A stretch of 64,000 nucleotides of DNA from Okamejei kenojei. Lineage: Eukaryota. The notes beneath the pieces are model-generated. The model ran no database searches. It saw only the letters and a program-made list of their open reading frames with translations, and was not told the DNA's origin. Position 1 is the first letter of the stretch; each line of letters starts with the position of its first letter. Positions 1 through 62,559 of this stretch are shown here, in pieces. The position numbers and the translations under genes were made by a program. The DNA is taken from assembly GCA_035221665.1 (NCBI GenBank), contig CM069154.1:2480001-2544000 (forward strand). Direction: 5' to 3'.

Positions 1-112
1 CTCGATTCCCCGACCCTGGGCAAGAGGCAGTTTGCGTTTATCTGATCGGTTCCTCTCATGATTTTTTTCCACCTCAACAAGATTGGTCCTTAACATCTCC
101 GTCTCTGGACAG

Positions 113-2343
113 ATCTGCGGGTTCCTGAACGGTGCCACCGCCGAATGGAACGCCCCTCAGGACACCCCGTACGCCTTCAAGAATGGAATATGGGTCGGCT
201 ATGACAACATCAAGAGCTTCGGAGACAAGGTACAGCTGACCATCTAAGTTCCACCCTTTCCATTGAACCATTGTGGTCTCGTTTATCTTAATATCTACTG
301 CAGAGTTTCCAACAGTGAGCACCAGAATTATGCTTCAAAATCCTTAGAATCTTTTGTCATTACATTCTGCATAACATTTCCAGCTCACCATAAACTCTTG
401 GTGTTCGGGTGTCAAGGGTTATGGGGAGAAGGCAGGAGAATGGATTTAGGAGGGAGAGCTAGATCAGCCACGAGTGAATGGCGGAGTAGACTGGATGGAC
501 CGAATGGTCTAATTCTGCTCCTATCAGTTATGAACATAATTAATATTCCAATTTTATAAAATAATTGAAGTCACATTTGCCTTAGATCTGTGCCTTCCCG
601 TGGATGTTAAGTGATGATCATGCTTCGTTATGCAGTTCAAACAAGTTTGTCGCTGTTAAAATAGATGATATGCTCTTTAGAAAGTGCTTTAAACATGGAC
701 ATTTTTGATTTGGGTCTGACATTTGGTCTCTGGGGATTTTATATATTTCCATTGGGGGGGGGGACTGTGTGAGCAAGGCAGGGAGTAACCTTTAGTTTAG
801 TCTAGTTTAGAGGTACAGCGTGGAAACAGGCTCTTCGGCCCACCGAGTCCGCGCCGACCAGCGATCCCCACATACTGGCACTATACTACACACACCAGGG
901 ATTTTACCAAAGCCAATTAATCTACAAACCTCTATGTCTTTGGAGTGTGGGAGGAAACCTGAGCACCCGGAGAAAACCCACGCAGGTCGCATGGAGAACG
1001 TACAAACTCCATACAGACAGCACGCTCTACTGCTGCGCCACCGTTCTGCCCTCATGAAATGATTCACATCGGGGAAACGTAGAATTTCTGTTTTTATTTC
1101 TCTGGTGCTGGGGTGAGACTGGTCCTCGATTATGCTGGTGGCCTTGCTGAGGCAGTGCGAGGTGTAGACGGAGTCAATGGAAGGGAGGTTGGTTTACGTG
1201 GTGGTCTGGGCTGCATCAGCAACTCCCTGCAATTTCCTGCGGGTTTTGGATGGAGCCATTCCCAAACCGTGCTGTGATGAATCCCGATAAAAAGCTTTCT
1301 ACAGCGCATCATAGAAGCCATTATTGACTGAAGGATTTTGGTGTAAAGTTGTGAACTGTGTCTTCCAGGTTGAGTGGCTGAAGAAGAACAACTTTGGAGG
1401 AGCTATGGTCTGGGATCTGGCTCTGGATGACTTCTCTGGTGCCTTCTGTCACCAGGGACCCTACCCTCTCATCAACACTCTGCACTCTGGCCTTGGCATC
1501 TCTGGAGGTAATGGAGATGTGCAGGACACGTCTTTCACACAGAGGGTGGTGGAACACTACCGGGGGGGGGGGGGGGGGGGGGGGTGGGGGTGGTGGTGGT
1601 GGCAGATAGTGGTAGGACTAGGTGTGATAGCTACGTTTTCCACACAGAGGGTGGTGGGTATAGGGAACAAGCAACTGAGTTACTCCAGCACATTGTGTCT
1701 ATTTTTATAGACCAGCATCTGGGGTAGATGCGAGGTCAGGACCCCTCTGGAGTTGGTGAGTGGGGGGTTCAGTGGGATAATCCTATTGACTGGGATATTC
1801 ACACTTTGTAGATCTGCATCTGCGGTTCCTTGTTTCTACATGAACAAGACGGATGCGCAGGCCAAGTCAACGGGTATTTCTAGGGCGGAGATTGACAGAT
1901 TCTTGATTAGTTCGGGTGTCCGGGTTTATGGGGAGAAGGCAGGAGAATGGGGTTGAGAGGGAGAGACAGATCAACCATGATTGAATGGTAGAGTAAACCC
2001 AATGGGCTAAATGGCCTAATTCTCCTATGAATTGAGGAGAACTTATGAACTTATAATGAACTGTTTCTTTGCAGCTTGCGTCCCATCCAAGACAACATTG
2101 AAGCCAGCGGTCCCACCTACTGATGCTCCTAGCGGTGGTGGAGGCAGCAGTGGTGGAGGCAGCAGTGGTGGAGGCAGCAGTGGTGGAGGCAGTGGCTTCT
2201 GTAAGGGCAAAGCGAACGGTACCTTCCCCGATCCCAAGGACAAGAACAAGTTCTACCAGTGCGCCAATGGTCGGACCTACCTGAAGAGCTGTGCCACTGG
2301 ATTAGTCTTCGATTCATCCTGTAAATGTTGCAACTGGCCTTAA
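113..2343 (+). CDS. chia: GH18 chitinase (CHIA-like) copy 1, last three coding exons (gene starts upstream of window)
   Basis: AG/GT-bounded exons 113-229 (ICGFLNGATAEWNAPQDTPYAFKNGIWVGYDNIKSFGDK), 1369-1507 (VEWLKKNNFGGAMVWDLALDDFSG...) and 2075-2343 (Gly/Ser linker plus 6-Cys CBM14 FCKGKANG...CKCCNWP*). Exon phases join in frame. Confidence 0.93.
790..1045 (-). mobile_element. tRNA-derived SINE (HE1/SacSINE-like)
   Basis: GGTGGCGCAGCAGTAGAG head and (TAAAC)n tail. Confidence 0.7.
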
Positions 2344-4798: not shown

Positions 4799-5005
4799 TA
4801 CTCCCGGCTTCCCCTGACCCTCATTGCCTGCGCTCACGTACTTTCAACCAATCACTGCCTCCCACGGAGCATTGGCCGTAGTCAGCCGCGACCTCTGCCA
4901 AACGTGTCGTTGCATCAGCATCAAGAACAATGCCATCCCAGCTGCCAGCGGCCAACCAGGCGCCCTACACATCCTGCTTCTGTCTCCACCACATCTCGCT
5001 CTGGC
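4799..5005 (-). other. Orphan IgV-family promoter fragment (no gene body)
   Basis: Homologous to 15455-15680 including the ERSE at 4848-4866; truncated just before the TATA box. Confidence 0.75.
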
Positions 5006-5934
5006 CCCCCACCCAGTGATGGAAATGGGGGGGGGGTACGCAGGGGTACGTTCCCTTACTTTTTAGACGCTGTTCCCCTACTTTTTAGTTTGCAGTCTCC
5101 ATGACAAGGCTGCCAACTCTCACGCTTTGAACGCGAGACTCAAGCATTTTGATAATTCTCACACACTCACGCTGATCACTAATTTTTCACGCGCTGTCGT
5201 GAGAAATTCTGTGACCAACGAGAATTTCAAAACTCATATCAATTGCATGGGCCGCGGGTGTTGGATAGCCGGGGCTGAGAAAGGGATGGAAGCAGAAGCA
5301 GTAGCGGGGACCGGATGTGGATGGGGAGCCGGGGCGGGTGAGTGTTTGCCGGGCTGGCGAGACACTCGCTGCAGCTCCGGCCATGGAGCTGCCTCAATGC
5401 AAGAGTCCCGGGCCATCGGAGGCGTCGGAAGCGTTGCGCCGTTGCCGTTAGAGTCTCTGTGCCGAATTCACCCTGGTGACCGGCATGGATCAGGCAGCGT
5501 CTGTGGAGAGAAGGAATGGGTGATGTTTCTGGTCGTGACCCTTCTAAGGGTCTCAACCCGAAACCTTTAGAAGGGTCTTGACCCGAAACGTCACCCATTC
5601 CTTCTCCACAGAGATGCTGCCTGTCCCGCTGAGTTGCTCCAGCATTTTGTTAAACTCTTCGGTTTAAACCAGCATCTGCAGTTCCTTCTCACATAATGAG
5701 ATCCCAACAAGACGACTTTGAAGCTAGCACCACACAGGTGGCGGAGGGACAGGGAGAGAGGGGATGTTAAATAAATCGATATTCATACTCAATCGGGGAA
5801 ATTAGTTGACATCTGTCTTTAAATTAATATTTTATTCATCTTTAAATGTAAGTCTTGGATTCATGTATCGCGGGAACAAATAAGCAAAGTAAATATAAAC
5901 TACAAATTAACTTCAGAAAATGAAACTTCACACT

Positions 5935-14264: not shown

Positions 14265-14811
14265 TCACTGGATTGTCAGCCGGGCCAATTCTTCACATTC
14301 CTTATCACAAAAAGTGGTCCAGACACAGGAATATGTCCCCTCATCTTTCTCTTTTACGCCTGTCAGGAGCAATGAGCCGTCAAATTCAGGAAATGGATTT
14401 TCATGCACGAACTCGCAGTGGACATCAGATCCGTGATATCGGTGAAGTATTCCAGTATGACTCATGGCAATTTCAAGACCATCTTTTCTCCATGTAGCTA
14501 CACGGAGATATCCGTAATCTTTGGATACTTTACAGGGCAGCGTAATAGAACCACCCAGAGATGCAACGAGCACCTTCATGTTAATCGATGATGGTGCTCG
14601 TTGATAGGTGATGACGGTATGCATCAGAATCTGTCTCGTTCGTGCAACTTGGAAGCTGTTTATCGTTGACTTGCAGAGGCGCCCGTGCGTTCCACCCGGG
14701 CAAGTTTGCCTCCTCTCCCCATTCTCCGGAGATCGGACCTGTTCCAGTTCCGGAGACTTGCCACACCATCTCCTCAAGGACCATGAACCCTATCCATCTC
14801 TGCAGTCCCAT
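14265..14811 (-). pseudogene. Secreted single-IgV prepro-protein, copy A (divergent, frameshifted)
   Basis: Leader MGLQRWIGFMVLEEMVWQVSG...RAPLQVN stops at 14581. The V domain (GGSITLPC..W..DGSLLLTGVKEKDEGTYSC..RLTIQ*) continues in another frame to 14265. Same acceptor (CCCACAG|GAACATG) and post-stop motif as the other copies. Confidence 0.75.
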
Positions 14812-17374: not shown

Positions 17375-17868
17375 CCAATCACTGCCTCCCACGGGGCATT
17401 GGCCGGAGCCAGCTGTGACCAATCCCACCGCACCGCCGGCTCAGGTGAGTATAAAGTGTGAAACCAGCGCAGGTGCCAGGGTGGTGGTGGTGACGTGGCG
17501 TGGCTGGGACATCCAGTCCGAATGTTGGCCAGAGCGAGACGTGGTGGAGACACAAGCAGGATGTGTGGGGCACTTGGTTGGCCGCTGGCAGCTGGGATGG
17601 CGTTGTTCTTGTTAAACGTTAACAGCTGATGCAACGACACGTTTGGCAGAGGGTGGAGAGGTTGCGGCTGACTCCGGCCAATACTCCGTGGGAGCCAGTG
17701 ATTGGTTGAAAGTACGGGAGCGCAGGCAATGAAGGTCAGGAGAAGCCGGGAGTAGGTTTAAAAGGAGCGAGCGATGGCAGGAGATGGAAATAAGACCAGC
17801 CTCATCACCCTGTGTGGAGACTCCGGAGCTGGTAACCACCCCTGTGGATCCTTCAAGTGTCTGTGAGT
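17375..17868 (+). promoter_or_regulatory. IgV copy B promoter plus non-coding exon 1
   Basis: ERSE at 17375-17393 and (reverse) 17687-17705, TGACGTGG at 17491, CCAAT at 17678, TTTAAAA at 17757, donor at 17863. Confidence 0.7.
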
Positions 17869-17894
17869 GATGGGGTTGGGATTGTCTCTATTCA

Positions 17895-18250
17895 CTGTTC
17901 CCCCAGTTCAGAAGCCTGACAGCAGAGGGGAATAAGCTGTTCCTGAGTCTGGTGGTGCGCGCTTTCAAGCTTCTGTACCTTCTGCTAGACAGGACCAGGT
18001 AGAAGGAGGAATGACCGGGGTGGGACAAGTCTTTGATTTTTTTGGTTGTAGATGGAGTCACTGGTGGGGTGAGTGGTCTGTGTGATGGACTGGGCTCCAT
18101 CCACAACTCTGCAATTTCATGTGGTCTTGGGCTCAGAGCTGTTCCCAACCAAGCTGTGGTGCAACCCGACAGTCTGCTCTCCGTGGTGCATCTGTAGAAG
18201 TTTCTAAGAGACATTGGAGACTTGCCATATTTCCTCGGTCTCCAAGGAAG
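17895..18250 (-). mobile_element. Rex1/Babar-type LINE 3' fragment in IgV intron (related copies at 15180-15305, 20865-20990, 31290-31620, 41030-41385, 42765-43120, 55925-56250)
   Basis: Peptide RNFYRCTTESRLSGC...RRYRSLKARTTRLRNSLFPSAVRLLN. Confidence 0.7.
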
Positions 18251-18429
18251 TTGATGCCACTTCAATGTTGTTGGTCAACGACAGGTCAAAGCAACTTAAA
18301 ATAAAGCAGGCGGGAGCTGAAGAAGCTGCACAGCGACATTGCCCAGTGTGGTGGCAGCAGCTTCAGAGAATGTTATCATGAATCCTACTGAGTTGCAATA
18401 ATGTGACCCATTGTTTCACCCACAGGAAC

Positions 18430-18945
18430 ATGGGACTGCAGAGATGGATAGGATTCATGGTCCTTGTGGAGATGGTGTGGCAAGTCTCCGGAACTGGAAC
18501 AGGTCCGATCTCCAGAGAATGGGGAGAGGAAGTAAACTTGCCCGGGTGGAACGCACGGGCTCCTCGACAAGTCAACACACAAGAAACTCCAGAATGCGGT
18601 GTTAAGCCATATTTGAACAAGATGAAATGGACAGAGATGACGGCACGCAAGGGTGGTTCTGCTACGCTACCCTGTAAAGTACCCACAGGGAAGGGTGGAC
18701 CCAAGCATTTTGTGGTCACCTGGAGTAAAGGGAAGGGGACACTGGGCGTGTTTACTGAAGGGAAAGGTCCAATCTATCCAGGAGGTTCCGGCCGCTGGAC
18801 GTTCACGAAACCAAATGTGGTTGAGACACGGGATGCCTCGTTGACTATCACGGGTTTACGCGAGACTGATATTGGGATATATTCCTGCGCTTGGTTCACT
18901 AGCCAAGGGGAATGCAGACTAAATATCAAGCTGACTGTGAAGTGA
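18430..18945 (+). CDS. Putative secreted single Ig V-set domain prepro-protein, copy B (171 aa)
   Basis: Acceptor AG at 18424-25, ATG at 18430. Hydrophobic N-terminus, RAPR|Q, V-set motifs GGSATLPC, VTW, DASLTI and D-x-G-x-Y-x-C; no TM segment. AATAAA at 19370. Non-coding exon 1 ends at donor GTGAGT 17863. Confidence 0.85.
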   Translation: MGLQRWIGFMVLVEMVWQVSGTGTGPISREWGEEVNLPGWNARAPRQVNTQETPECGVKPYLNKMKWTEMTARKGGSATLPCKVPTGKGGPKHFVVTWSKGKGTLGVFTEGKGPIYPGGSGRWTFTKPNVVETRDASLTITGLRETDIGIYSCAWFTSQGECRLNIKLTVK

Positions 18946-19589
18946 AACCTCCCACTGATTCAGCACAGACCCCTCCAAGTGTCAGGAGCAACAGGCAGTG
19001 GCAGGTCAGCACAAACACAATAACATCCCTCATTATAAACTTGACACACTTAGGCCAACAACAGCATTTTATATTGTAGTCACTGAATTCATCATGAGGG
19101 GAATAGAGGGGTGAACACTAAGCATCTTTTACCTGGGGTACGGGAATCAAGGGACATAAGTTTAAGGTGAGAGGGGCAAGATTTAATAGCAACCTGAGGG
19201 GCAAAATCTTTACTCAGGGGGCGGTGGGTTTATGGAACTGTCCGGTTGGGCGGGAACTGTAACAATATTTAATACACAATTGGTACAGGGAAAGGTTTAG
19301 GGGGATATGGGGCAAAAGTAGTGCAATGGAACAGACCCTGCTTGCACCGGTAAATGTACCATTAATGGAAATAAACTCTCTTGAAGACAACCGGTGTGAG
19401 TGATTCTTTGTACGCCAGCATTGAGTTGGGTGTGAACTTTGTGCAACTCCTGCTCACTACGGGCAGCATCGCTGGGTTCTATGAGCTGTGTCCATCATTG
19501 GTCATACCACATGGGGACGGAACAACATGTGGAAAATCAGGAGTCTGCAGATGTTGAGAACAGGAACAAAAATAAAGGGGAATGATGTC

Positions 19590-21374: not shown

Positions 21375-21890
21375 ATGGGACTGCAGAGATGGATAGGATT
21401 CGTGGTCCTTGTGGAGATGGTGTGGCAAGTCTCCGGAACTGGAACAGGTCCGATCTCCAGAGAATGGGGAGAGGAGGCAAACTTGCCCGGGTGGAACGCA
21501 CGGGCTCCTCGGCAAGTCAATGAAGATCCAACTCCACAATGCGGTGTTAACCTAGCTCCGGACAAGATGAGGTGGACGGAGGTGACGGCCAGTAAGGGGG
21601 GTTCTGCTCAGCTAGCCTGCAAAATGCCCAAAGAAGACGATGGAGCCGATACATTTGTGGTACTGTGGACGAAAGGAAAAGATACGATCGCCGTGTTTAC
21701 TGACAGGAACGGTGCTCAATATCCAGGGTCACCCGGACGCTGGAAGTTCATGAAAACAAACGTGGTTGAGACACGGGACGCCTCGTTGGTCCTGGCGGGG
21801 CTGGAAGAGGAAGATGCTGGGAAATATTCCTGCGCTTGGCTGGTTAATAACGTGCCGTGTAAACTAAACACCAAGCTGACAGTGCAGTGA
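21375..21890 (+). CDS. Putative secreted single Ig V-set domain prepro-protein, copy C (171 aa)
   Basis: Acceptor at 21369-70, ATG at 21375. Leader 47/49 identical to B. V domain GGSAQLAC..VLW..DASLVL..DAGKYSC. AATAAA at 21957; exon 1 donor at 20825. Confidence 0.85.
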   Translation: MGLQRWIGFVVLVEMVWQVSGTGTGPISREWGEEANLPGWNARAPRQVNEDPTPQCGVNLAPDKMRWTEVTASKGGSAQLACKMPKEDDGADTFVVLWTKGKDTIAVFTDRNGAQYPGSPGRWKFMKTNVVETRDASLVLAGLEEEDAGKYSCAWLVNNVPCKLNTKLTVQ

Positions 21891-28581: not shown

Positions 28582-31500
28582 TTAAGGCCAGTTGCAGCAT
28601 TTACAGGATGAATCAAAGACTAATCCTGCGGCACAGCTCTTCAGGTAGGTCCGACCATCATCGCACTGGTAGAACTTGCTCTTGTCCTTGGGATCGGGGA
28701 AGGTACCGTTCGCTTTGCCCTTACAGAAGCCACTGCCTCCACCACTGCTGCCTCCACCACCGCTGCCTCCACCACCGCTAGGAGCATCAGTAGGTGGGAC
28801 CGCTGGCTTCAATGTTGTCTTGGATGGGACGCAAGCTGCAAAGAAACACAGTTCGTTATGTTCTCCTAAAGTCTTAGAAGAATTAGACGATTTGGCCCAT
28901 TGACTTACTCCACCATTCAATCATGGTTGATCTATCCCTCCCTCTCAACCCCATTCTCCTGCCTTCTCCCCATAAACCCTGACACCCAAACTAGTCAAGA
29001 ATCTGTCGATCACCGCCTTAGAAAATACCTGTTGACTTGGCTTCCGCATCCGTCTTAGTTCATGTAGAAACAAGAAACCACAGATGCAGATCTACAAAGT
29101 GTGAATATCCCAGTCAATGGGATAATGCCACTGAACCCCCCTCTCATCAACTCCAGAGGGGTCCTGACCTCGCATCTACCCCAGATGCTGATCCATAAAA
29201 AGAGACACAATGTGCTGGAGTAACTCAGTTGCTTGTTCCCTATACCCACCACCCTCTGTGTGGAAAACGTAGCTATCATTCCTAGTCCTACCACTATCTG
29301 CCTCCACCACCACCCCCGGTAGCGTGTTCCCGGCACCCACCACCCTCTGTGTGAAAGACGTGTCCAGCACATCTCCATTACCTCCAGAGATGCCAAGGCC
29401 TGAGTGCAGAGTGTTGATGAGAGGGTAGGGTCCCTGATGACAGAAGGCACCAGAGAAGTCATCCAGAGCCAGATCCCAGACCATAGCTCCTCCAAGTTGT
29501 TCTTCTTCAGCCACTCAACCTGGAAGACACAGTTCACAACTTTACACCAGCATCCCTGGCTCAATAATGGCTTCTACGATGCGCCGTAGAAAGCTTTTTT
29601 ATCGGGATTCATCACAGCACGGTTTGGGAATGACTCCATCCAAAACCCGCAGGAAATTGCAGCAGTTGCTGACGCAGCCCAGACCATCACGTAAACCAAC
29701 CTCCCTTCCATTGACTTCATCTACACCTCACGTTGCTTTCAGCAAGGCCACCTGCATAATCGAGGACCAGTCTCACCCCAGCACCAGAGAAATAAAAACA
29801 GAAATTCCAAGTTTCCCCGATGTGAATCCTAACCCCTTTCTCCTGCCTTCTCCCCATAACCCTGACACCTGAACACCATGAGTTTATGGTGAGCTGGAAT
29901 ATTTTGCAGAATGTAATGACAAAAGATTCTAAGGATTTTGAAGGATTCTGGAGTTCACTGTTTGAAACTCTGCAGTAGATATTGAGATAAACGAGACCCT
30001 GATGGCTCACGTGGAAAGGGTGGAACTTCGATGGTCAGCTGTACCTTGTCTCCGAAGCTCTTGATGTTGTCATAGCCGACCCATATTCCATCCTTGAAGG
30101 CGTACGGGGTGTCCTGAGGGGCGTTCCATACGGCGGTGGCACCGTTCAGGAACCCGCAGATCTGTCCAGAGACGGAGATGTTAAGGACCAATCTTGTCGA
30201 GGTGGAAAAAAATCATGAGAGGAACCGATCAGGTAGATGCAAAGTGTCTCTTGCCCAGGGTCAGGGGAATCGAGAACCAGAGGACATAAGGTGAGGGAGA
30301 AAGATTTAATAGGAACGGTGCTGGTTCGAAGGGCCGAATGGCCATCTATTGTCTATTAAACCTGAGGGGTAACCATTTGACACCGTGGGTGGTGATAGTG
30401 ACAAAGGCTGGAGGGGAACAGAAGACAAAGTAGTGTCAGATACTGAGCGGAGAGGAGCAGATGTAGAGAGATGCGCAAAGCGAGTAGGAAAGAGGAGAGA
30501 GATATGTGAAGAGAAGAGAGAAAGAAATGAAAGAGGATAGGAGAGAAAGATATATAAAGACAGGAAAGAGAGATATGTCCAGAAAGTGGAGGAGAGAGAT
30601 GTAAAGCGGGAGGGAGGGATGTGGAGAGAAGGAGATAGCGGGGAGGGCAAAGATTAAGGGGAGGATAGAAGGGAAGTGGGGATTTCTGAGAGGAGAGGAG
30701 GGGAACGGAGAACGGGGTGGGCGATGTTTCGGATGGCGATCCATTCCTCATGTGTCCATCTATGTTGTGTGTGGTTATTCAGTATTGGATTGGAAGATAA
30801 CATTGAGCTAAAGGGCCGCGCGGTTGGAATGGTCGGTAGGTACAGTACCTCATAGTAGGCCAGGAAGCCGGCTTGGCGGGTGTATTTGCCGGCTGGTCCA
30901 GCGCCTCCTGCTGGGGCACCCACAGCCGTGCTGGACGAGGTCAGTCTGAAGGTGTGTCCATAGGTGGGGAAGCCCACATTCAACTTGTCCACTGGAGCCC
31001 CTTGCTCTTCCAGTAGTTCATGCGTATTCCTGCAGGGACACAGTTGGCATCAAAGGACTTTAGGCTCATGTTTAAGTTTATTATTGTCACGTGTACCGAG
31101 GCACAGTGAAAAGCTTCCAAACAGATCAGATAATACCGTACATAAATACAATCAAATCAAACTCGGGTACAATAGGTGGAGCAAAGGGGGAGATACAGAG
31201 AGCAGAATATAGTTCTCAGCATCGTAGCGCATCAGTTCCACAGACAAAGCCCAATGTCCGCAATGGGGTAGAGGTGAATCGGACAGTACCCTAGCTTATG
31301 GAAGGACCGTTCAGAAGCCTGATAGCAGAGGGGAAGGAGCTGTTCCTGAGTCTGGTGGTGCGCGCTTTCAAGCTTCTGTACCTTCTGCCGGACGGAGCAG
31401 GGGAGAAGGAGGAATGAGCGGGCTGGGACAAGTCTTTGATTCTGTTGGCTGCTTTTCTGAGGCAGTGTGAAGTGTAGATGGAGTCAATGGTGGGGGAGTG

Positions 31501-34500
31501 TGGTCTGTGTGATGGACTGGGCTCCATCCACAACTCTCTGCAATTTCTTGTGGTCTTGGGCTCAGAGCTGTTCCCAAACCTAGTTGTGATGCAACCCCAC
31601 AGTCTGCTCTCCGTGGTGTATGGAACAGTTATATGGACTCGGCAAAATGGGTTTGCCAATTCGGAGAGAGGAAATGAAAAAGTTGAGCAGAATTTATTTT
31701 TCTTGCGCACTTACCACATTGAAATGGGTGTTGGTGTAATCCTTGTCATTAGGCAGGGCATAGAGGGGGCTGTTCTCTCCAGTAACGTGGCTCCAGGGAC
31801 CATAGAAATCATAGGTCATCACGTTGAAGAAGTCAACCACCCTGCAAGAGAGGAGACCGGGGTCACCCTGATACTCCATGCACCAAATTAACATCAGAAC
31901 CCAGAGCAGTACAACACACGTGAACAGGCCCTTCTACCCACAATGTCTATGCCAAACACATGACGGCAAGATAAACTCATCTCCTCTGTCTGCACGTGAT
32001 CCGTATCCCTCCATTCCCTGCATATCTACGCGTCTATCCACAAGCCTCTTAAACATCGCTATCTTGCTTCCACCACCACTCCTGGCAGTGCGTTCCAGGC
32101 ACCCACCACCCTCTCTGTAAAAAAAACATTCACATCTCCTTTAAACTTGAACATGATGCCAAGTCCATCACTTATCACCACATCACCAACATCCCTCCAT
32201 GCCCGGCATTATCATGTGCCCATCTAAAGGTCGTTTACATGCCACTAAGGTATCTACTTCAACCACCACCCCAGCAGGTTCTGACTGTCTACCCTATCTA
32301 TGCCTCTAGTGATTTTAAAAAACTTCTATCAAGCCTCTCCTTCAACCTCTGACGTTCCAGAGGAAACAATGCAAGTTTGGCCAACCTCTCCCTGTAGTGA
32401 ATCCCCTCTAACCCAGGCAGCGTTCTGGTAAATCTCCTCTCCAAAGCCTCCACATCCTTCCTGTAATGGAGACGACCAGACCTGCACGCAATGCTCTAAA
32501 TGCCTCCTGGCTAAAGACCGCCAGAGCTGCAAGTTGGCTTCCTGACTCTCACACTCAATGCCCCGAACGGTGAAGGCATTGAATGCATTAGGGTTGTGGA
32601 TGGATCTCAATCAACGTGAAATTCTGGAGCGATGAAAAACTAGTTCAAATATAACGTAAACTCACTAAACTCCCGAGATGAAAGCCCAAAGAAAAGTTGG
32701 GTTTCTTTGCGTGTGGAAGGACACTCACTTGCCGAGCTGAGGAACCTCGTAGCCAGTATCAATGTTGCTCATCCCACCAGCAACGGCAGCTGAGAGCAGC
32801 AGTCGTGGCTGTCCTGTGCTTTTTCCCTCGGCCTCGAACGCAGCCATCAGCTCCTGTGGGTCAGAGAGATTGAGGACTCCTTTACCAAGAGGTCAAGTCT
32901 AGTCTTAGGAAGGGTCCCGACCCGAAACGTCATCTATACCTTTTCCCCAGAGATGCTGCCTGACCCGCAGTGTTACTCCAACACTTTGTGTCAATTTCAA
33001 GTTTGGTTTTGGTTAGTAATGCAGCGTGGAAACAGGCCCTTCGGCCCATCGAGTCCACGCCGACCAGCGATTACCCTTTCACTCTAGTTATATCCTACAT
33101 TCTTGGGACAATTTACTGAAGCCAATTAACCTACAAACCCACACATATTTGGAGTGCGGAAGGAAACCAGGGCGCCTGAGGTCATGGGGTGAACGTACAA
33201 ACTCCGTACAGACAGCATCCATGTTCAGGATCGAACCCGCGTCTCTGGCGCTGCGAGGCAGCAACTCTACCCCTGCACCACCGTATCGCCCAAGAGTGGG
33301 GACGAAACCTTTTAATCCCCACTCAAAATGGTGCTTGGATCAAATTTGATTAAACTCTTAATTTCTGAATTCTTAAATTCCTTTGTGTAATCTGTGAAAA
33401 TCTGTCCTTGGTGATCTTGACAACAAGGTTACATTTATTGGACAAATTTGCAAGTCATAGAGCTATGCAGCGTGGCAACAGACCCTTTGACCTGCCCACA
33501 CTGACCAATATGTCCCATCTACACTAGCCCCACAAAGTGCTGGAGTAACTCAGCGGGTCAGGCAGCATCTGTGGAGAACATGGATAGGTGACGTTTCACA
33601 GAGTGCTGGAGTAACTCAGTGGGTCAGGCAGCATCTGTGGAGAACATGGATAGGTGACGTTTCACAGAGTGCTGGAGTAACTCAGCGGGTCAGGCAGCAT
33701 CTGTGGAGAACATGGATAGGTGACATTTCACCGAGTGCTGGAGTAACTCAGTGGGTCAGGCAGCATCTGTGGAGAACATGGATAGGTGACGTTTCACAGA
33801 GTGTTGGAGTAACTCAGCGGGTCAGGCAGCATCTGTGGAGATAAAGCCTGAGTTTGGCCCATTTTTGTTTAACGAAACCATAGTGAGATGTACTTGACCG
33901 CACCTGAGCCAGAACAGTGTAGAGATGCTTGTCAACGGGAGGACTTCCTCGAGATCCAGGATATTCCCAGTCGATGTCCAGACCGTCAAAGTTGTACCCT
34001 CTCAGGAAGGCGATGACTGACTTGATGAAGATTTGCCGAGTTCCTGATGAGGCAACCATCGCGGTGAATCTGCAGGAGGGGTGAATGTGGGAACAGGAGT
34101 TAGAAATGAAATGTGCCGGAGACACAAGGAAAGGCCGCTGTACTCAGTGACCCAGTGACCCTGCTGTTATATCCTATCATGTACAGATTCACCCACGCCT
34201 TTGTTAAATGCTCAAGTGGTTAAAAAATTACATGTGAAATTATTCTTTTTGAAAATGAAGTTTAGTTTAGTTTTAGAGATACAGCGCAGAAACAGGCCCT
34301 TCGGCCCATCCAGTCTGCACCGACCAGCGATCCCCGCACACTAACACTATCCTACACACACAAGGGACAATTTACATTTATACCAGGCCAATAAACCTAC
34401 AAATGTGTACGTCTTTGGAGTGTGGGAGCAAACTGAAGATCTCTGAGAAAACCCAGGCGGTCACAGGGAAAACGTACCAACTCCACACAGACAGCACCCG

Positions 34501-37500
34501 TAGTCAGGATCGAACCCGGGTCTCCGGTGCTGTAAGCGCTGTAAGGCAGCAACTCTACCACTGTGCCACACACTATTGAAAGGATTCTTTCTGAAAATTA
34601 TGTTCTTTTACTTTTTGGCAAGCAATATGCTATATTGTTCAAATTACAATTTGCAAACTGTTCTGTTTAATAATACTCCTGTAACAGTTCACTGTAAAAT
34701 TATCCCCTCGGTATTTATCTCTGTCGATATCATTACTAGAGCCAGGATGTTTAGGCACTAAAAAACTGAAATAGGCAGGCAAAAAGCCATAATAAAATTA
34801 CAAAAAAGGCACAAAAAAGCCATTTATTGACATAAAAAGGCATATATTTCCACCACCAAAATATGGTTAAAAATGATAATATAAAGTTATAGTACATTAA
34901 ATGACCAAAGTTGCCTGGTTGCACACAATTACTAGCATTTTTTCAAAGGATCTGGTGTTAAACTATGCCGTCTGTCAGACAGAATATGCTTCAGTTGTGA
35001 AAAACTTATTTCTACCCCAGCTGAGGTCACTGGTGCATACCAGAAACAAGCTACGGACTCTATATTCATGTCGATGTCTTGTGCATTGCAATTACCTTTG
35101 AGAACTTTAGCTATGTTTTGTATTTCTTCAAGATCTTTGTCAGCTAAAATCACTCTCTCACATTTTCCTTGTATGTCTTTACCGACATCGCCAGGAACTT
35201 TACGAATATCATCAGTTACTTTGTGGAAAACCTGCAAGTTATTCACTAATGTTTCGCCACCGTTCTCAAGGGAAGTGGTAGCTTGTGGGAAGTTTGCAAA
35301 ATTGGAAGCATTAAATAGATTTTGGAGAAGACTGAACCAGCATGAACGAACTACCGACGGTGGCGCTCCCAGTTTTGCCCCGGTGGTAGAAATTTTCTTG
35401 TAATTTATACTATGTTAAACACTTTAATAATAACATTAATATTAACGTGTTAATATAGAAAACGTAATTGTAATCATGGTACAACTAGACAAAATAGCAC
35501 AACCTTTTAGCAAAATGGCAAAAAAAGGATTATTTTGGCACTCAATCGTGAAAAAGGCATAATGGCAAAATCATCAAAAAAAGGCATGAAACGCCAAATG
35601 GCAAAATTACCAAACACACCCACTGTTTACGTCGGGCACATGGAACTGCAGGTGCTGGTTTACAAAAAGAAAAGACACAAAGTGCTGGAGTAACTCAGCG
35701 AGTCAGGCAGCATCTCTGGAGAACATGGATAGGTGACGATTCGGGTCGAGACCCTTCTTCAGGCTGAGGAGTTACTGAGGAGTTACTCCAGCACTTTGTG
35801 TCTTTCAATATTCATTCCATATCACAGTCAATTGGAAAATAACTCTTAGTTTTTTTTAATCTAATGCTAACGTAAAAAGTTTCCATCTTACTTCTGGGTG
35901 CCAAAGTTCCAGCCTCCAATGGACAGCAGAGTCTTGAGGTTTGAATTCCTTTAAAAAAAAGGACAAAATGTGGTTTTAGAATGATGTTTAGAACAACAGA
36001 ACATTTTCAGAACTTCTGAGGAACTTCTGGATCTTCTGTTTCCCGCCGCCCCCCCCCCCCCCCCCCCCCCCCATTTGGTGTTACGTTTAGTTGAGGGGAT
36101 TTGCCTCAGTCTTGTTCTCAAGGGGGTTCACAGAAAATGAGGTACAAGTTCATGCAACAAGGCTTCACAAGCAATGGGCCAGTCTCACTCTGTGGGCTGA
36201 AGGGCCTATTTCCTCAATCTGTGACTCAATGATTCTGTTGGCCTGTCCAATAACTTTCTCCTGAATATCCCCCTGGACCAAGTCACCTTTCAGACAGGGG
36301 AGGTGGATGAGATGAGAAAACCTTCAACAAATGGATGTGTAACAGGGTCATGTCAAAGACCCTGCTGACCATCGATCACCCGTTCACACCAGCTCTATTT
36401 CATCCCACTTTCTCATCCACTCCCTATGCACTTGGGGCAATTTGTAGAGGCAAATTAAACTAGAAACCCTTTGTAATGTGGGAGAAAACCGGTAATCTAG
36501 AGAAAACCTACACCGTCACAGGGACAACGTGCAAACTCCACACAAACAGTGCCTGAGTTCAGGATCGAACCCAGGTCTCTGGCGCCGTGAGGCAGTGGCT
36601 CTACCCGCTGCGCCACTGTGCCGACCGATACGTATAACAGATGGATTCTTGCCACATACTCTTCAAAACGACTTGTTCACTTAGGTCAACCATCGACCGA
36701 AAGAGTTTGAAATGGAATGTTCATTAAACACTGGATGTCCCTTCGCTTACAGCAAGGACATGTAATTCATGGTTACATTTAACCCAATCAGACCCAAATC
36801 AGCAGGGTTCCACTCCACCCATTTGTCTCCACCGAGCTGTATCTCTGAGAATTTAGGCATCACCTTGGTACTTAAAGTCTAAATTATCCCACTGAACCAT
36901 CCTCTCACCAACTAGAGAGCGGTCCTGACCTCCCATCTACCTCATTGGAGACCCTCGGACTATATTTAATCAGACTTCACTGGACTTTCTCTTGCACTAA
37001 ACATTATACCCTTCATCCTGTGTCTGTACACTGTGGGCCGCCTGATTGTAATCATGTACGGTCTTTCTGCCGACTAGTTAGCACGCAACAAAAAGCTTTT
37101 TGTTGTACCATGGTACACGTGACAATAATAAACTAAATTAAACTAAATTAACCGTGGAATATGGGTTATGGAATATTGGTTTGGGGAATATCCAATACAA
37201 TGACTGGTTAGCACGCAACAAAAACCTTTCACCGTACCTCAGTACAGGTGACAATAAACTAAACTGGACAATGTAAACATCGCAACAATGCCCGGCATTT
37301 GAGAAACAAGGTTAAGCCCCTGTCCCATTTTCCCGAGTTACTCACGAATTCTCCCGAGTCTTCCCCTTGATTCAAACTCGGAGATGCCAGCTGTAGATAC
37401 TCAGGGCTATATTTTGTACTCGTGGACATTTTTCAACATGCTGAAAAAACGTCCCGACTTACCTGATGCCCCCAGTACCTACGGCTGGCATTACGAGCCG

Positions 37501-39322
37501 CTACGAAGTATCTGTGGACCATAGGAGTCGCTACGGACATTCTCCGAGTTTGAATCAAGGGGAAAACTCGGGAGAATTCGTGAGTAACTCGGGAAAGTGG
37601 GACCGATGCTTTAGTATTTATTCAGCAACTGTACTTGTTCTTCAGGCTGTTGATCTCCTGGTAGAGTTTTGGGTCGTTCCATTCATAGGTGGCGATTTGA
37701 TTGCTCTTCATTCCAGCGAAGGCGTAGATGATGTGTGTGCAGAGGCAAGGGTCCACGTTCTGGGGCATGTATTTACCCTCTCCTGGTCTGTACTGCGCCC
37801 AGTTGGTGAAGTAACACACCAGCCTGTAGGCAGAGCCTGGGCAAGGGAGAGACAGGGCGGTCAGGACAATGTCTCTGTGGCACTCACACAAAGCAAAGCA
37901 AGGTTACAAATGCACAAAGACTCACCCAGTTGCAGGCAGGCCAGTAAGACCACTGCTGGAACAGAAAACAGAGAGCAGCATGTTAGGATTACGACAAACC
38001 GTAATAAGTCAGGGATTACGGGGAGAAGACAGGAGAATAGGGTTGAGAGGGAAAGATAGATCAGCCATGATTGAGTGGCTAGAGTGCACTTGATGGGCCG
38101 AATGGCCTAATTCTGCTCCCATCACTTATGAATTTATGAAACCTTGGCTGCATTACGGCCTCTACACAATGACACTGTTATATAAGTGGTTGGGAAACTA
38201 TGAAGATCTATCTTGTGGGCGGCACGGTGGCGCAGCGGTAGAGGTGCTGCCTCACAGCGCCAGAGACCCAGGTTCGATCTTGACTATGGGTGTTGAACGT
38301 GTGTGGAATTTGTACATCAACCCCTGCTATGCTTACTATTCTAGTATAATTAGATAGTTCTGTTTTCTGGTACAAATGACAATAACACACCCTTAACTCC
38401 CTCTCCCTGTGACCATGTGGGTTTTCTCCGGGAGCTCTGGTTTCCTCCTAAATCCAAAAGATGTGAGGGATTGAAGGTTAGTTTTCCCTCTGTAAAATTG
38501 CTCCTAGTGTGTAGGGAGTGGATGCAAAAGTGGGATAACATAGAACTAGTGTGAAGGGCTGAACAATGGTCGGCGTGGACTCCGTGGGCCGAAGGGTCTG
38601 TATCTCTAAACTAAACCTTTCCTATCCATGTACCTGTCTGAATGTCTTTTAAATGTTATTATACTTGCCTCATCTCTGGCAGATCGTTCCATATACTCAC
38701 CACCCTCTGGGCAACAGGTTAGAGTCATAGAGTCACACAGTCATAGAGTCAAACAGGCCCTTTGGCCCAATTTGCCCATACTGACCAAGATGCCCCACCT
38801 AAGCTTGTCCCAGTTGCCCCTGGATTCACCTTTAAATCTTTTCCCACTCACCTTAAGTCAATGCCCCGTAGTTTTAAACTCCCCTTCCCTGGAGAAAGGC
38901 AGAGACCATACTTCAAATCTCTGCCCCTCGTGATTTTCTAAATGTCTCTGAAGATTTTCACAGAGTGCTGGAGTAATTCAGCGGGTCAGGCAACTTCTCC
39001 GGAGAGAAGGAATTGGTGACATTTCGGGTCCGTTGGAAAATACAAAATATTAAGAAACTACAAACTGCAGAAGTTGATTTACTCCAAAGATAGACACAAA
39101 GTGCTGGAGTATCTCAGCGGGTCAGGCAGCATCTCCGGAGATAAGGGTTGGGTAGAATTGAGACGCTTCTTCAGACACCTTGATAATTAAACTTGAGAAA
39201 CAATTTAATCTGTTCTCATCCTCATTTAATTTCTAAACCTGATTCTTTCAAAAAGCATTCCTATATCAAAAGGAATTAAACAGCAAAAGGCTCTTACCTG
39301 TTCCAAGAAGTAGCTTTGCCAT
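28582..39322 (-). CDS. chia: GH18 chitinase (CHIA-like) copy 2, 11 coding exons; three 1-bp deletions (pseudogene or consensus errors)
   Basis: Exons 39322-39298 (MAKLLLGT), 37955-37926, 37836-37635 (YRLVCYFTNWAQYRP), 35948-35892 (LLSIGGWNFG), 34069-33904 (catalytic FDGLDIDWEYPG), 32853-32729, 31841-31715, 31029-30849, 30161-30045, 29519-29382, 28835-28582, all with GT/AG. Exon 8 is 2 nt and exon 10 is 1 nt shorter than in copy 3. Confidence 0.92.
33536..33840. repeat. 66-bp tandem repeat, ~4.6 units (duplicate at ~58156-58460)
   Basis: AGTGCTGGAGTAACTCAG starts at 33536, 33602, 33668, 33734 and 33800. Confidence 0.92.
34258..34570 (-). mobile_element. tRNA-derived SINE (others at 33000-33290, 36365-36625, 38218-38615 and their duplicates)
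   Basis: GGTTCGATCCTGACTACGGG B-box and (TAAAC)n tail. Confidence 0.75.
34742..35615 (-). mobile_element. Deleted hAT-like DNA transposon in chitinase intron 4 (duplicate at ~59361-60235)
   Basis: Peptide YAPVTSAGVEISFSQLKHILSDRRHSL resembles the hAT dimerisation motif P-x-TS-x-x-x-ER-x-FS; subterminal AAAAAGGCA repeats. Confidence 0.65.
37315..37610. mobile_element. PIF/Harbinger-like MITE (duplicate at 61917-62214)
   Basis: ~65-bp terminal inverted repeats (37317-37384 and 37541-37608) and TTA target-site duplication on both sides. Confidence 0.8.
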
Positions 39323-40694: not shown

Positions 40695-41002
40695 TGGCCA
40701 GAGCGAGACGTGGTGGAGCCACAAGCAGGATGTGTGGGGCGCCTGGTTGGCCGCCGGCAGCTGGGGTGGCGTTGTTCTTGTTAAACGTTAACGGCTGATG
40801 CAACGACACGTTTGGCAGAGGGTGGAGAGGTCGCGGCTGACTCCGGCCAATGCTCCGTGGGAGCCAGTGATTGGTTGAAAGTACGTGAGCGCAGGCAATG
40901 AAGGTGAGGAGAAGCCGGGAGTAGGTATAAAAGCCCCGTCACCCTATGTGGAGACTCCGGAACTGGTAACCACCCCTGTGGATCCTTCAAGTGTCTGTGA
41001 GT
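40695..41002 (+). promoter_or_regulatory. IgV copy D promoter plus exon 1
   Basis: Reverse ERSE at 40856-40874, TATAAAA at 40926-40932 followed by a short deletion relative to other copies, donor at 40997. Confidence 0.65.
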
Positions 41003-41553
41003 GATGGGGTTGGGATTGTCTCTATTCACTGTTCCCCCAGTTCAGAAGCCTGACAGCAGAGGGGAATAAGCTGTTCCTGAGTCTGGTGGTGCGCGCTTTC
41101 AAGCTTCTGTACCTTCTGCTAGACAGGACCAGGTAGAAGGAGGAATGACCGGGGTGGGACAAGTCTTTGATTTTTTTGGTTGTAGATGGAGTCACTGGTG
41201 GGGTGAGTGGTCTGTGTGATGGACTGGGCTCCATCCACAACTCTGCAATTTCATGTGGTCTTGGGCTCAGAGCTGTTCCCAACCAAGCTGTGGTGCAACC
41301 CGACAGTCTGCTCTCCGTGGTGCATCTGTAGAAGTTTCTAAGAGACATTGGAGACTTGCCATATTTCCTCGGTCTCCAAGGAAGTTGATGCCACTTCAAT
41401 GTTGTTGGTCAAAGCAACTTAAAATAAAAGCAGGCGGGAGCTGAAGAAGCTGCACAGCGACATTGCCCAGTGTGGTGGCAGCAGCTTCAGAGAATGTTAT
41501 CATGAATCCTACTGAGTTGCAATAATGTGACCCATTGTTTCACCCACAGGAAC

Positions 41554-42087
41554 ATGGGACTGCAGAGATGGATAGGATTCATGGTCCTTGTGGAGATGGT
41601 GTGGCAAGTCTCCGGAACTGGAACAGGTCCGATCTCCAGAGAATGGGGAGAGGAAGTAAACTTGCCCGGGTGGAACGCACGGGCTCCTCGACAAGTCAAC
41701 ACACAAGAAACTCCAGAATGCGGTGTTAAGCCAGATTTGAACAAGATGAAATGGACAGAGATGACGGCACGCAAGGGTGGTTCTGCTACGCTACCCTGTA
41801 AAGTACCCACAGGGAAGGGTGGACCCAAGCATTTTGTGGTCACCTGGAGTAAAGGGAAGGGGACACTGGGCGTGTTTACTGAAGGGAAAGGTCCAATCTA
41901 TCCAGGAGGTTCCGGCCGCTGGACGTTCACGAAACCAAATGTGGTTGAGACACGGGATGCCTCGTTGACTATCACAGTTGTTGGTCATCAGCCATTGGCC
42001 TGCGGAAAAGGATGGAAAACCATAACTGGAAAGTGTCTTTTGTTGAGGAGCCTTTTAGGCAATAAAACACATGGATATAATATGTAA
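41554..42087 (+). pseudogene. IgV prepro-protein copy D (B-type), truncated in strand E and fused to upstream-flank sequence
   Basis: Matches B/E up to ...RDASLTIT (~41975), then reads into the sequence found at 17115 (VVGHQPLAC...). Lacks the second canonical Cys. Confidence 0.75.
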
Positions 42088-43296: not shown

Positions 43297-43812
43297 ATGG
43301 GACTGCAGAGATGGATAGGATTCATGGTCCTTGTGGAGATGGTGTGGCGAGTCTCCGGAACTGGAACAGGTCCGATCTCCAGAGAATGGGGAGAGGAAGT
43401 AAACTTGCCCGGGTGGAACGCACGGGCTCCTCGACAAGTCAACACACAAGAAACTCCAGAATGCGGTGTTAAGCCAGATTTGAACAAGATGAAATGGACA
43501 GAGATGACGGCACGCAAGGGTGGTTCTGCTACGCTACCCTGTAAAGTACCCACAGGGAAGGGTGGACCCAAGCATTTTGTGGTCACCTGGAGTAAAGGGA
43601 AGGGGACACTGGGCGTGTTTACTGAAGGGAAAGGTCCAATCTATCCAGGAGGTTCCGGCCGCTGGACGTTCACGAAACCAAATGTGGTTGAGACACGGGA
43701 TGCCTCGTTGACTATCACGGGTTTACGCGAGACTGATATTGGGATATATTCCTGCGCTTGGTTCACTAGCCAAGGGGAATGTAGACTAAATATCAAGCTG
43801 ACTGTGAAGTGA
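43297..43812 (+). CDS. Putative secreted single Ig V-set domain prepro-protein, copy E (B-type, 171 aa)
   Basis: Duplicate of B with Q18R and Y-to-D (KPDL) changes; intact ORF; exon 1 donor at 42730; AATAAA at 44237. Confidence 0.85.
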   Translation: MGLQRWIGFMVLVEMVWRVSGTGTGPISREWGEEVNLPGWNARAPRQVNTQETPECGVKPDLNKMKWTEMTARKGGSATLPCKVPTGKGGPKHFVVTWSKGKGTLGVFTEGKGPIYPGGSGRWTFTKPNVVETRDASLTITGLRETDIGIYSCAWFTSQGECRLNIKLTVK

Positions 43813-46239: not shown

Positions 46240-46756
46240 ATGGGACTGCAGAGATGGATAGGATTCATGGTCCTTGTGGAGATGGTGTGGCAAGTATCCG
46301 GATCTGGAACAGGTCCGATCTCCAGAGAATGGGGAGAAGAGGCAAACTTGCCCGGGTGGAACGCACGGGCTCCTCGGCAAGTCAATGAAGATCCAACTCC
46401 ACAATGCGGTGTTAACCTAGCTCCGGACAAGATGAGGTGGACGGAGGTGACGGCCAGTAAAGGGGGTTCTGCTCAGCTAGCCTGCAAAATGCCCAAAGAA
46501 GACGATGGAGCCGATACATTTGTGGTACTGTGGACGAAAGGAAAAGATACGATCGCCGTGTTTACTGACAGGAACGGTGCTCAATATCCAGGGTCACCCG
46601 GACGCTGGAAGTTCACGAAAACAAACGTGGTTGAGACACGGGGACGCCTCGTTGGTCCTGGCGGGGCTGGAAGAGGAAGATGCTGGGAAATATTCCTGCG
46701 CTTGGCTGGTTAATAACGTGCCGTGTAAACTAAACACCAAGCTGACAGTGCAGTGA
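46240..46756 (+). CDS. IgV prepro-protein copy F (C-type) with +1 G at 46640-46643 (frameshift or homopolymer error)
   Basis: Duplicate of C; ACACGGGGACG versus ACACGGGACG in C splits the ORF into two frames; AATAAA at 46823. Confidence 0.75.
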
Positions 46757-62200: not shown

Positions 62201-62559
62201 GTGGGACCGATGCTTTAGTATTTATTCAGCAACTGTACTTGTTCTTCAGGCTGTTGATCTCCTGGTAGAGTTTTGGGTCGTTCCATTCATAGGTGGCGAT
62301 TTGATTGCTCTTCATTCCAGCGAAGGCGTAGATGATGTGTGTGCAGAGGCAAGGGTCCACGTTCTGGGGCATGTATTTACCCTCTCCTGGTCTGTACTGC
62401 GCCCAGTTGGTGAAGTAACACACCAGCCTGTAGGCAGAGCCTGGGCAAGGGAGAGACAGGGCGGTCAGGACAATGTCTCTGTGGCACTCACACAAAGCAA
62501 AGCAAGGCTACAAATGCACAAAGACTCACCCAGTTGCAGGCAGGCCAGTAAGACCACCG
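53202..62559 (-). CDS. chia: GH18 chitinase (CHIA-like) copy 3, coding exons 2-11, frame intact; exon 1 lies just beyond the window end
   Basis: Exons 62559-62530, 62440-62239, 60566-60510, 58689-58524 (DGLDIDWE), 57473-57349, 56472-56346, 55661-55479, 54786-54670, 54140-54002, 53455-53202. With a 25-nt exon 1 as in copy 2 they total 1425 nt (474 aa plus stop). Confidence 0.94.

Follow-up and report, generated by a model that had tools for sequence, protein, structure and literature searches.

A conserved leader joined to a variable mature part is found in venom and antimicrobial prepropeptides. The same arrangement is described, in the excerpted account of PMC3477143, for the rodent Esp pheromone genes, in which conversion acts near the 5′ end. 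For primate red and green opsins, flanks that group by species and a selected part that groups by paralogue were reported (PMC3924837, in excerpt). Among immunoglobulin-type proteins, bat PSGs (secreted CEACAMs) show a lineage-specific IgV expansion with diversifying selection at surface sites and were proposed to act as decoys, as stated in part of PMC5594555; CEACAMs also undergo gene conversion (excerpt of PMC8860441). The VCBPs of amphioxus and Ciona are, according to a portion of PMC4757023, secreted V-domain gut effectors tied to chitin. A locus of Okamejei kenojei was compared with these systems. The gene family at this locus is undescribed in the literature searched, the evolutionary pattern being already known from opsins, Esp and PSG.

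Gene copies and family

At least ten family copies (A to J) are present in the 2.76-Gb genome, in which an 11th member was not found. Copies A to F lie inside the window, that is, the whole stretch of 64,000 nucleotides that was analysed; G to I lie at most 43 kb downstream, and J is unlinked, 26.6 Mb off. B, C, E, G, I and J are intact and A, D, F and H (4/10) are broken. Copy B (18430..18945, + strand) is an intact ORF of 171 aa. Colinear with it is the likewise intact copy C (21375..21890, +; 171 aa), the orthologue of little-skate protein P0003. Copy A (14265..14811, −) carries a frameshift in the arm region. Copies D, E and F derive from a 24.9-kb tandem duplication with 96-98% identity, the units of which (17112-41975 and 41973-64000+) carry B, C and one chitinase gene. 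E (43297..43812, +) is a recent duplicate of B (169/171 aa), F (46240..46756, +) is a recent duplicate of C with a frameshift in V, and D (40695..41975, +) combines a G-type promoter with a B-type gene and ends inside V at the duplication junction. Short microhomology was observed at this junction (41975). In run X5, one contig stops exactly at 18851, the breakpoint of D, with a depth of 75 versus 47-48 alongside, a weak hint that D is real. At 18610 in B and 21751 in C, the base is not that of the respective duplicate, E or F; both bases are absent from the contigs of run X5 and are therefore alleles or assembly errors.

Outside the window, on the contig that also carries it (C24), copy H is split just past the leader by a 5.7-kb insertion (G000:C24:2568830-2574520, corresponding to L016:4830 to L017:520). 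Terminal inverted repeats were observed in this insertion, with tyrosine-recombinase and reverse-transcriptase fragments nearby, and we take it to be possibly a DIRS-type element. The intact, unlinked copy J (L027:2485-2988), which has a 7-residue deletion in the pro-segment and a net charge of -10, serves as an unconverted outgroup to the cluster copies.

The V genes of the cluster alternate with, and are enclosed by, tandem GH18 chitinase genes that carry CBM14 exons, located at 1-2340 (+), 28585-37864 (−) and 53205-62468 (−) of the window and in L018, L021, L024 and L025; the first two form an inverted pair flanking A, B and C. Among 150 scanned out of 360 filtered flanking ORFs (914 in total), only chitinase and transposon domains were found.

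Relatives of 175-221 aa, all uncharacterised, were obtained from Leucoraja erinacea (8 records) and Rhinoraja longicauda (1), together with one unnamed Logan protein. Profile search of 1.84 billion representatives yielded a full-length homologue from the electric ray Narcine bancroftii (E = 1.6e-23), auto-named nectin-1-like, with a matching leader, the PRQV motif and the four cysteines. The other profile matches listed were longer multi-domain proteins, as judged by length, and those inspected, nine in number, comprise butyrophilin-like, CAR-like and unnamed fish proteins. Fused or longer forms of the family were not found in searches that returned generic multi-Ig proteins only, and the atlas search gave generic V-set clusters and no family-specific cluster. 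Among 24 sequencing runs listed as carrying the sequence, none was an RNA run. Judged by sequence, the family is thus one of batoid (skates, electric ray), single nectin/PVR-like IgV proteins. No description of it was found in the literature searched; subscription journals and supplementary tables, the latter of which may list the genes, lay outside that search.

Structure of copy B and its predicted protein

Promoter and exon 1 of B (17526..17862, +) are homogenised, with 6-20 differences per ~250-290 nt among the cluster copies. Exon 1 is likely 5′ UTR. Because its in-frame ATG is absent in D, G and J (3/10 copies), translation most likely starts at 18430. The intron (17863..18425, +; GT..AG, 563 nt), which splices onto 18426, went unmentioned in the first-pass annotation, as did the upstream exon; the spliced exon 1-exon 2 junction is seen in little-skate RefSeq proteins and in one Logan protein. 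The middle of the intron consists of one repeat type in B, D, E and J and of another, unrelated type in A, C, F, G, H and I.

The shared promoter contains a predicted ERSE-type element, CCAAT-N9-CCACG (17687..17705, −), which is exact in 8/10 copies, has one mismatch in J and was not found in H. A second, inverted copy of the 39 nt containing the element was observed upstream of B and E (17375-17413). Search with the promoter block gave 14 matches (a lower bound), all at family loci or at two orphan fragments without a V gene (4799-5006, −, and G000:C24:29132509-29132769, −; 85% and 92% identical to B, respectively), and a young genome-wide transposon was rejected as the nature of the 5′ block on this basis. 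On the 3′ side, a short conserved block lies at and after the stop (18943..18990, +). A second one (19329..19584, +), with AATAAA at 19370, is 85-90% identical among A, B, G, H and I and has no match beside C.

The N-terminus of B would be a signal peptide (residues 1-21; 18430..18492, +), as predicted from a short hydrophobic stretch, followed by an acidic pro-segment ending RAPR-QVN (18493..18576, +), with which the homogenised block ends. The divergent mature part (18577..18945, +) comprises an N-terminal arm with Cys56, the V-set domain (residues 69-170) with Cys82, Cys153 and Cys162, and the stop. The loops compared below are BC (residues 83-94; 18676..18711, +), which is most variable, the C′C″ loop with the C″ strand (residues 110-115; 18757..18774, +) and FG (residues 157-161; 18898..18912, +). 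Assignment to the Ig V-set follows from the Pfam profile PF07686 (E = 1.5e-10; 41.6 bits versus a cut-off of 26; residues 69-170), the ABED/GFCC′C″ strands of the model and the invariant C82, W98 and C153; all four cysteines are invariant in 14/14 sequences. The structure model is confident from about residue 52 (pLDDT ~80-92 over 61-171 and under 50 for residues 1-51; mean 72.4). A B/C heterodimer model scored 0.02, which is no evidence either way. Viral origin was rejected, the best viral folds being 12-25% identical and no better than cellular folds.

No transmembrane segment was found in B (best 19-residue hydropathy 1.05), and the family proteins are likely secreted. A type II membrane protein, starting with the 31-residue extension of the RefSeq records, is unlikely given the missing upstream ATG in D, G and J and the low hydropathy. 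From conservation, a second disulfide between Cys56 and Cys162 is predicted, as is cleavage at PR-QV, which would leave a Gln at the new N-terminus. Across batoids it is PR-QV and not RxxR that is preserved (P0053 from Narcine; window 18562-18573), RxxR being absent in 2/8 little-skate proteins and in the Narcine protein. Net charges across the copies range from -10 to +12.

Contrast between leader and V domain

The first-pass annotation had reported an inverted conservation, with a nearly identical leader and non-coding DNA next to a mature V domain that is hypervariable in CDR-like loops. For the coding part this was reproduced: B and C share 47/49 residues over codons 1-49 (5/147 nt differences) and 69/122 residues over codons 50-171 (109/366 nt differences). 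Identity had been said to collapse right after RAPR, and the best single break indeed falls at 18576, where codon 49 ends, 9 nt past RAPR (maximum chi-square 59.9, reached by 0/5000 permutations). The 20-mer at the stop, attributed to A, B, C, E and F, occurs exactly five times in these copies, with 0.01 occurrences expected. All quoted differences in the BC, C′-C″, FG and N-terminal regions are present. Their clustering is borne out as well: B and C differ at 18/23 positions in BC, C′C″ and FG versus 25/80 in the rest of V (Fisher p = 8e-5), 20/55 at other non-core positions (p = 0.001) and 6/20 in the bottom loops (p = 0.002), p-values that are optimistic since the loops were delimited with the claim already known. 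Elsewhere, the two proteins differ at 5/25 core positions, 1/8 in the DE loop and 10/19 in the N-terminal arm. The contrast between leader and mature part is family-wide, I and C sharing 47/48 leader residues and 38/120 mature residues.

Near-identity of the non-coding DNA holds for the 5′ blocks (30/526 differences over three blocks) and for short 3′ blocks, the likeness of B and C on that side spanning 48 nt only (5/48 differences), but fails in the intron middle, where ~330 nt are unrelated (85/262 mismatches after forced alignment). The CDR analogy is apt as to position; the fold, however, is nectin/PVR/CAR-like, and variation across the family extends to exposed strands and the DE loop. 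Nothing in the analysis points to venom. An assembly artefact behind the uniform leader is unlikely, as the little skate is alike and the leader attracts a pile-up of contigs in four runs, the depth of which is not a copy number.

Probable gene conversion of the 5′ ends

Diversifying selection and conversion of the flanks had been offered as alternatives. Both are probably needed, with conversion making the contrast. High dS with dN/dS well below 1 had been named as the mark of old divergence, and the B-C pair bears it: dS is 0.53 (counting) or 0.58 (ML) and omega 0.64 (counting) or 0.58 (ML), without overall positive selection. The pair is therefore an old split with homogenised flanks; signs of selection are the placement of its replacements in the loops and the family-wide models described below, which lose significance with the five intact genes alone. 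Silent sites of the mature part have diverged as much as replacement sites, dS being 0.42-0.83 in all 14 non-duplicate pairs of intact genes. Divergence of the 5′ non-coding DNA was 0.018-0.066 among six cluster copies and 0.10-0.13 to the unlinked J; between B and C, 10/39 four-fold sites differ versus 30/526 5′ non-coding positions (p = 1.4e-4).

Closest V partners were found across species: C and P0003 share 112/122 residues (92%), G and P0006 107/126 (85%) and B and P0001 94/122 (77%). Species-wise clades were rejected for the mature part (AU 4e-6; 455 log units worse), and on these comparisons the V lineages had arisen before the little skate split off. In the 5′ part, leader residue 21 is G in 9/9 cluster copies and Rhinoraja and A in 8/8 little-skate proteins, the Logan protein and J; similarly, base 17600 is G in 8/8 cluster copies covering it and A in J and in 4/4 contigs of run X11. 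Flanks that group by species and a target that groups by paralogue, the form of a divergence peak, are thus seen from a few diagnostic sites. The star-like 5′ alignment fails to reject the V tree (AU 0.065), and V rejects the 5′ tree (7e-9).

A derived segment of the C intron is common to A, G, H and I, in which it is 3-7% apart, and is not shared by B, the V sister of C (support 99%); the intron type of B is shared with the distant J, 16% apart. This grouping contradicts the V tree, so exchange is needed. Copy D, being G-type at 17550-17804 and B-type from 17860 on with the switch inside exon 1, is a G/B hybrid. Intron segment and hybrid together therefore call for exchange between copies.

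Between species, as compared over the longest contig pieces only, V of run X6 shows differences at 19/489 and 25/615 positions (3.9% and 4.1%) versus 8/234, 6/205 and 5/209 in the flanks (2.4-3.4%); the values are 6.1% versus 3.7-6.4% for X9 and 7.2% versus 4.7-9% for X11. Orthologous V DNA has thus diverged to much the same degree as its flanks, and this speaks against hypermutability of the domain. Silent differences near selected sites are not raised (0.29, 0.28, 0.24; rho 0.03). The leader is 16-20/48 identical to that of Narcine (33-44%), near the 26/101-41/122 (25-34%) of the mature part, and hence, as far as sequence identity tells, is under no special long-term constraint. The inversion between leader and V is likely due mainly to gene conversion and not to a hypermutable domain.

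Likely selection on the V domain

The V domain is likely under positive selection, although this is not shown. Between B and C, dN/dS is 0.19 in the leader; pN is 0.49 in the three loops versus 0.20 elsewhere, with an even pS (0.37 and 0.41). Site models were fitted with own codon-model code to 101 V codons of 5-7 sequences. With seven copies, M2a was preferred to M1a (2dL = 17.0, p = 2e-4), omega being 2.8 in 28% of sites, and M8 to M8a (p = 3e-5); across these models, about 28% of sites have an omega of 2.6-2.8. In 60 simulations under the null, the largest value was 15.1, short of 17.0. The signal holds with other codon frequencies (p = 0.001 and 0.0005) and with doublet mutations (p = 0.002). 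Conversion inside V, of which identical stretches of 25-37 nt that stop close to residue 83 are a sign, can depress dS and push omega up; following removal of residues 69-85, the site test still gave p = 0.007. The five intact genes alone gave no significant site test (p = 0.25-0.28; 0.43 with doublets), nor did their whole mature part (p = 0.13), and adding the broken A or H alone restored the signal (p = 0.003 and 0.008, respectively). Maintenance of the differences by selection is accordingly significant with 6-7 copies and not with the five intact ones.

The G/I/J/A/H clade gives the strongest signal (omega 4.8, p = 1e-6). Of 14 sites with a posterior >0.75, nine fall in BC, C′C″ and FG; DE and the exposed strands account for two each, and one is in a bottom loop. 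The loops lie above other non-core sites (p = 0.0016). Among the 11 listed of the 19 differences between run X6 and B, five are silent.

Interpretation and alternatives

With a probability of roughly 0.7, B is a copy of a batoid family in which old V paralogues are combined with repeatedly converted 5′ ends and with selection on exposed loops. Neighbouring copies would overwrite each other's promoter, exon 1, intron and leader by repeated gene conversion, in tracts that begin in the ~1-kb 5′ block, where the copies are almost identical, and do not extend past codon 49. This limit may reflect selection against tracts that run on into V and wipe out a useful specificity, and also a failure of V, already 30-47% different in DNA, to pair. 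Through repeated conversion, all copies would retain a single promoter and a single signal for export and processing, and selection would favour different residues on exposed loops. The predicted outcome is a set of co-expressed proteins with different loop surfaces and charges, all processed identically by removal of the signal peptide, cleavage near PR-QV and formation of the Cys56-Cys162 disulfide.

As to function, binding of microbes or adhesins, or action as decoys, at a mucosal or glandular surface is a tentative first choice, to which the resemblance to domains of pathogen receptors, the parallel with PSGs and the neighbouring chitinase genes point. With the same evolution, the proteins might instead serve in reproduction or chemical signalling, in seminal, egg or skin secretions, in the manner of Esp; this is a somewhat less likely second choice, against which the interleaving of the cluster with chitinase genes counts. 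Fish chitinases are mostly digestive-tract genes. A far-reaching extension of the mucosal role is rather unlikely. In it, batoids would own a germline repertoire of non-rearranging, secreted, single V binders, proteolytically matured, with diversified CDR-equivalent loops behind a stress-responsive promoter-prepro cassette that conversion keeps uniform; these would be released at the gut surface together with chitinases, as a vertebrate parallel of VCBPs or as soluble decoys for pathogens that bind nectin/CAR.

Conversion might also make the contrast while V drifts under relaxed constraint, the loops merely tolerating change. An M0 omega of 1.09 with 60% of sites neutral, the non-significant tests on intact genes, the X6 comparison, in which orthologous V evolves about as fast as its flanks, and the 4/10 broken copies would all fit. 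Against this stand the far greater variation of the top loops (18/23 positions, against 6/20 in the bottom loops; mean omega 1.88 and 1.24, respectively, p = 0.003), the significant seven-copy and clade tests, pair I-A with an omega of 4.2 and core residues preserved back to the electric ray, so that we consider drift improbable.

Very improbable are young duplicates, in which the mature domain would have changed under intense selection or local hypermutation, venom-like and with no conversion at all. Some pairs do combine low silent with high replacement divergence (I-A: dS 0.12, dN 0.51), and for scorpion toxins the rate of the mature domain is credited to selection alone in the excerpted text of PMC2651877. 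The V lineages, however, predate the little-skate split at cluster 5′ blocks that differ by 2-7% only, V does not outrun its flanks between species, and the intron segment and the hybrid D, which require exchange, already contradict this explanation. Purifying selection on promoter and leader DNA or RNA as the cause of uniform 5′ ends, to which the low B-C leader dN/dS and the conserved ERSE-type element might point, can be dismissed as scarcely credible, since uniformity extends to repeat-derived intron DNA, variants are fixed by species, the leader is only 33-44% identical to that of the electric ray and J differs by 10-16%.

Comparison with known systems

The preferred reading, old V paralogues with converted 5′ ends and selected loops, has partial counterparts in several described families. 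Domain 1 of nectin/PVR (CD155)/CAR is the best sequence match (PVR E = 1.9e-7) and among the best folds (nectin-1 D1, Z 14.3, rmsd 2.1, 105 aligned; CAR, Z 14.2; also PVR domain 1). Identity to nectin/PVR is 24-34%, a similarity tied with that to CAR, NTB-A and CD200R, with many V domains within 1 Z. In contrast to nectin/PVR, the batoid protein lacks C domains, transmembrane segment and tail and stops directly after strand G; it also has a pro-segment, two extra Cys, and signal peptide and V in one exon. Membership of nectin/PVR as given by a V-C-C ectodomain, transmembrane segment and tail was therefore rejected. Antigen receptor V domains (Ig, TCR, IgNAR) were likewise discarded, strand G being in the same ORF without the F/W-G-x-G motif and without a separate J.

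Like the PSGs, the family is a lineage-specific expansion of IgV proteins, likely secreted ones. The N domain of CEACAM/PSG is not known to have a B-F disulfide and is encoded on an exon apart from the leader, whereas batoid V has the canonical one and a different exon layout, and conversion spares V instead of shuffling it. Identity with CEACAM/PSG was rejected, both Cys being invariant and leader and V lying on one exon. In VCBPs, V is fused to a chitin-binding domain, whereas batoid V genes merely neighbour chitinase genes; the CBM14 exons sit in separate GH18 genes and the V ORFs end in a stop, so identity with VCBPs was rejected too. Should the proteins bind microbes, they would add a new branch to the innate defence of cartilaginous fishes and offer a small binding scaffold of natural origin; in any case, a batoid family of small V domains with four cysteines, hitherto uncharacterised, comes to light.

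Compared with the opsins, the batoid peak covers a whole 122-codon domain, nine linked copies take part and the boundary lies inside an exon, beside the predicted processing site. Unlike Esp, venom and antimicrobial peptides, to which no sequence relation was found, the batoid protein has an Ig fold. The locus thus provides a natural case, with cross-species and outgroup controls at hand, in which the pattern of conserved leader and hypervariable mature part, usually credited to accelerated evolution alone, needs conversion.
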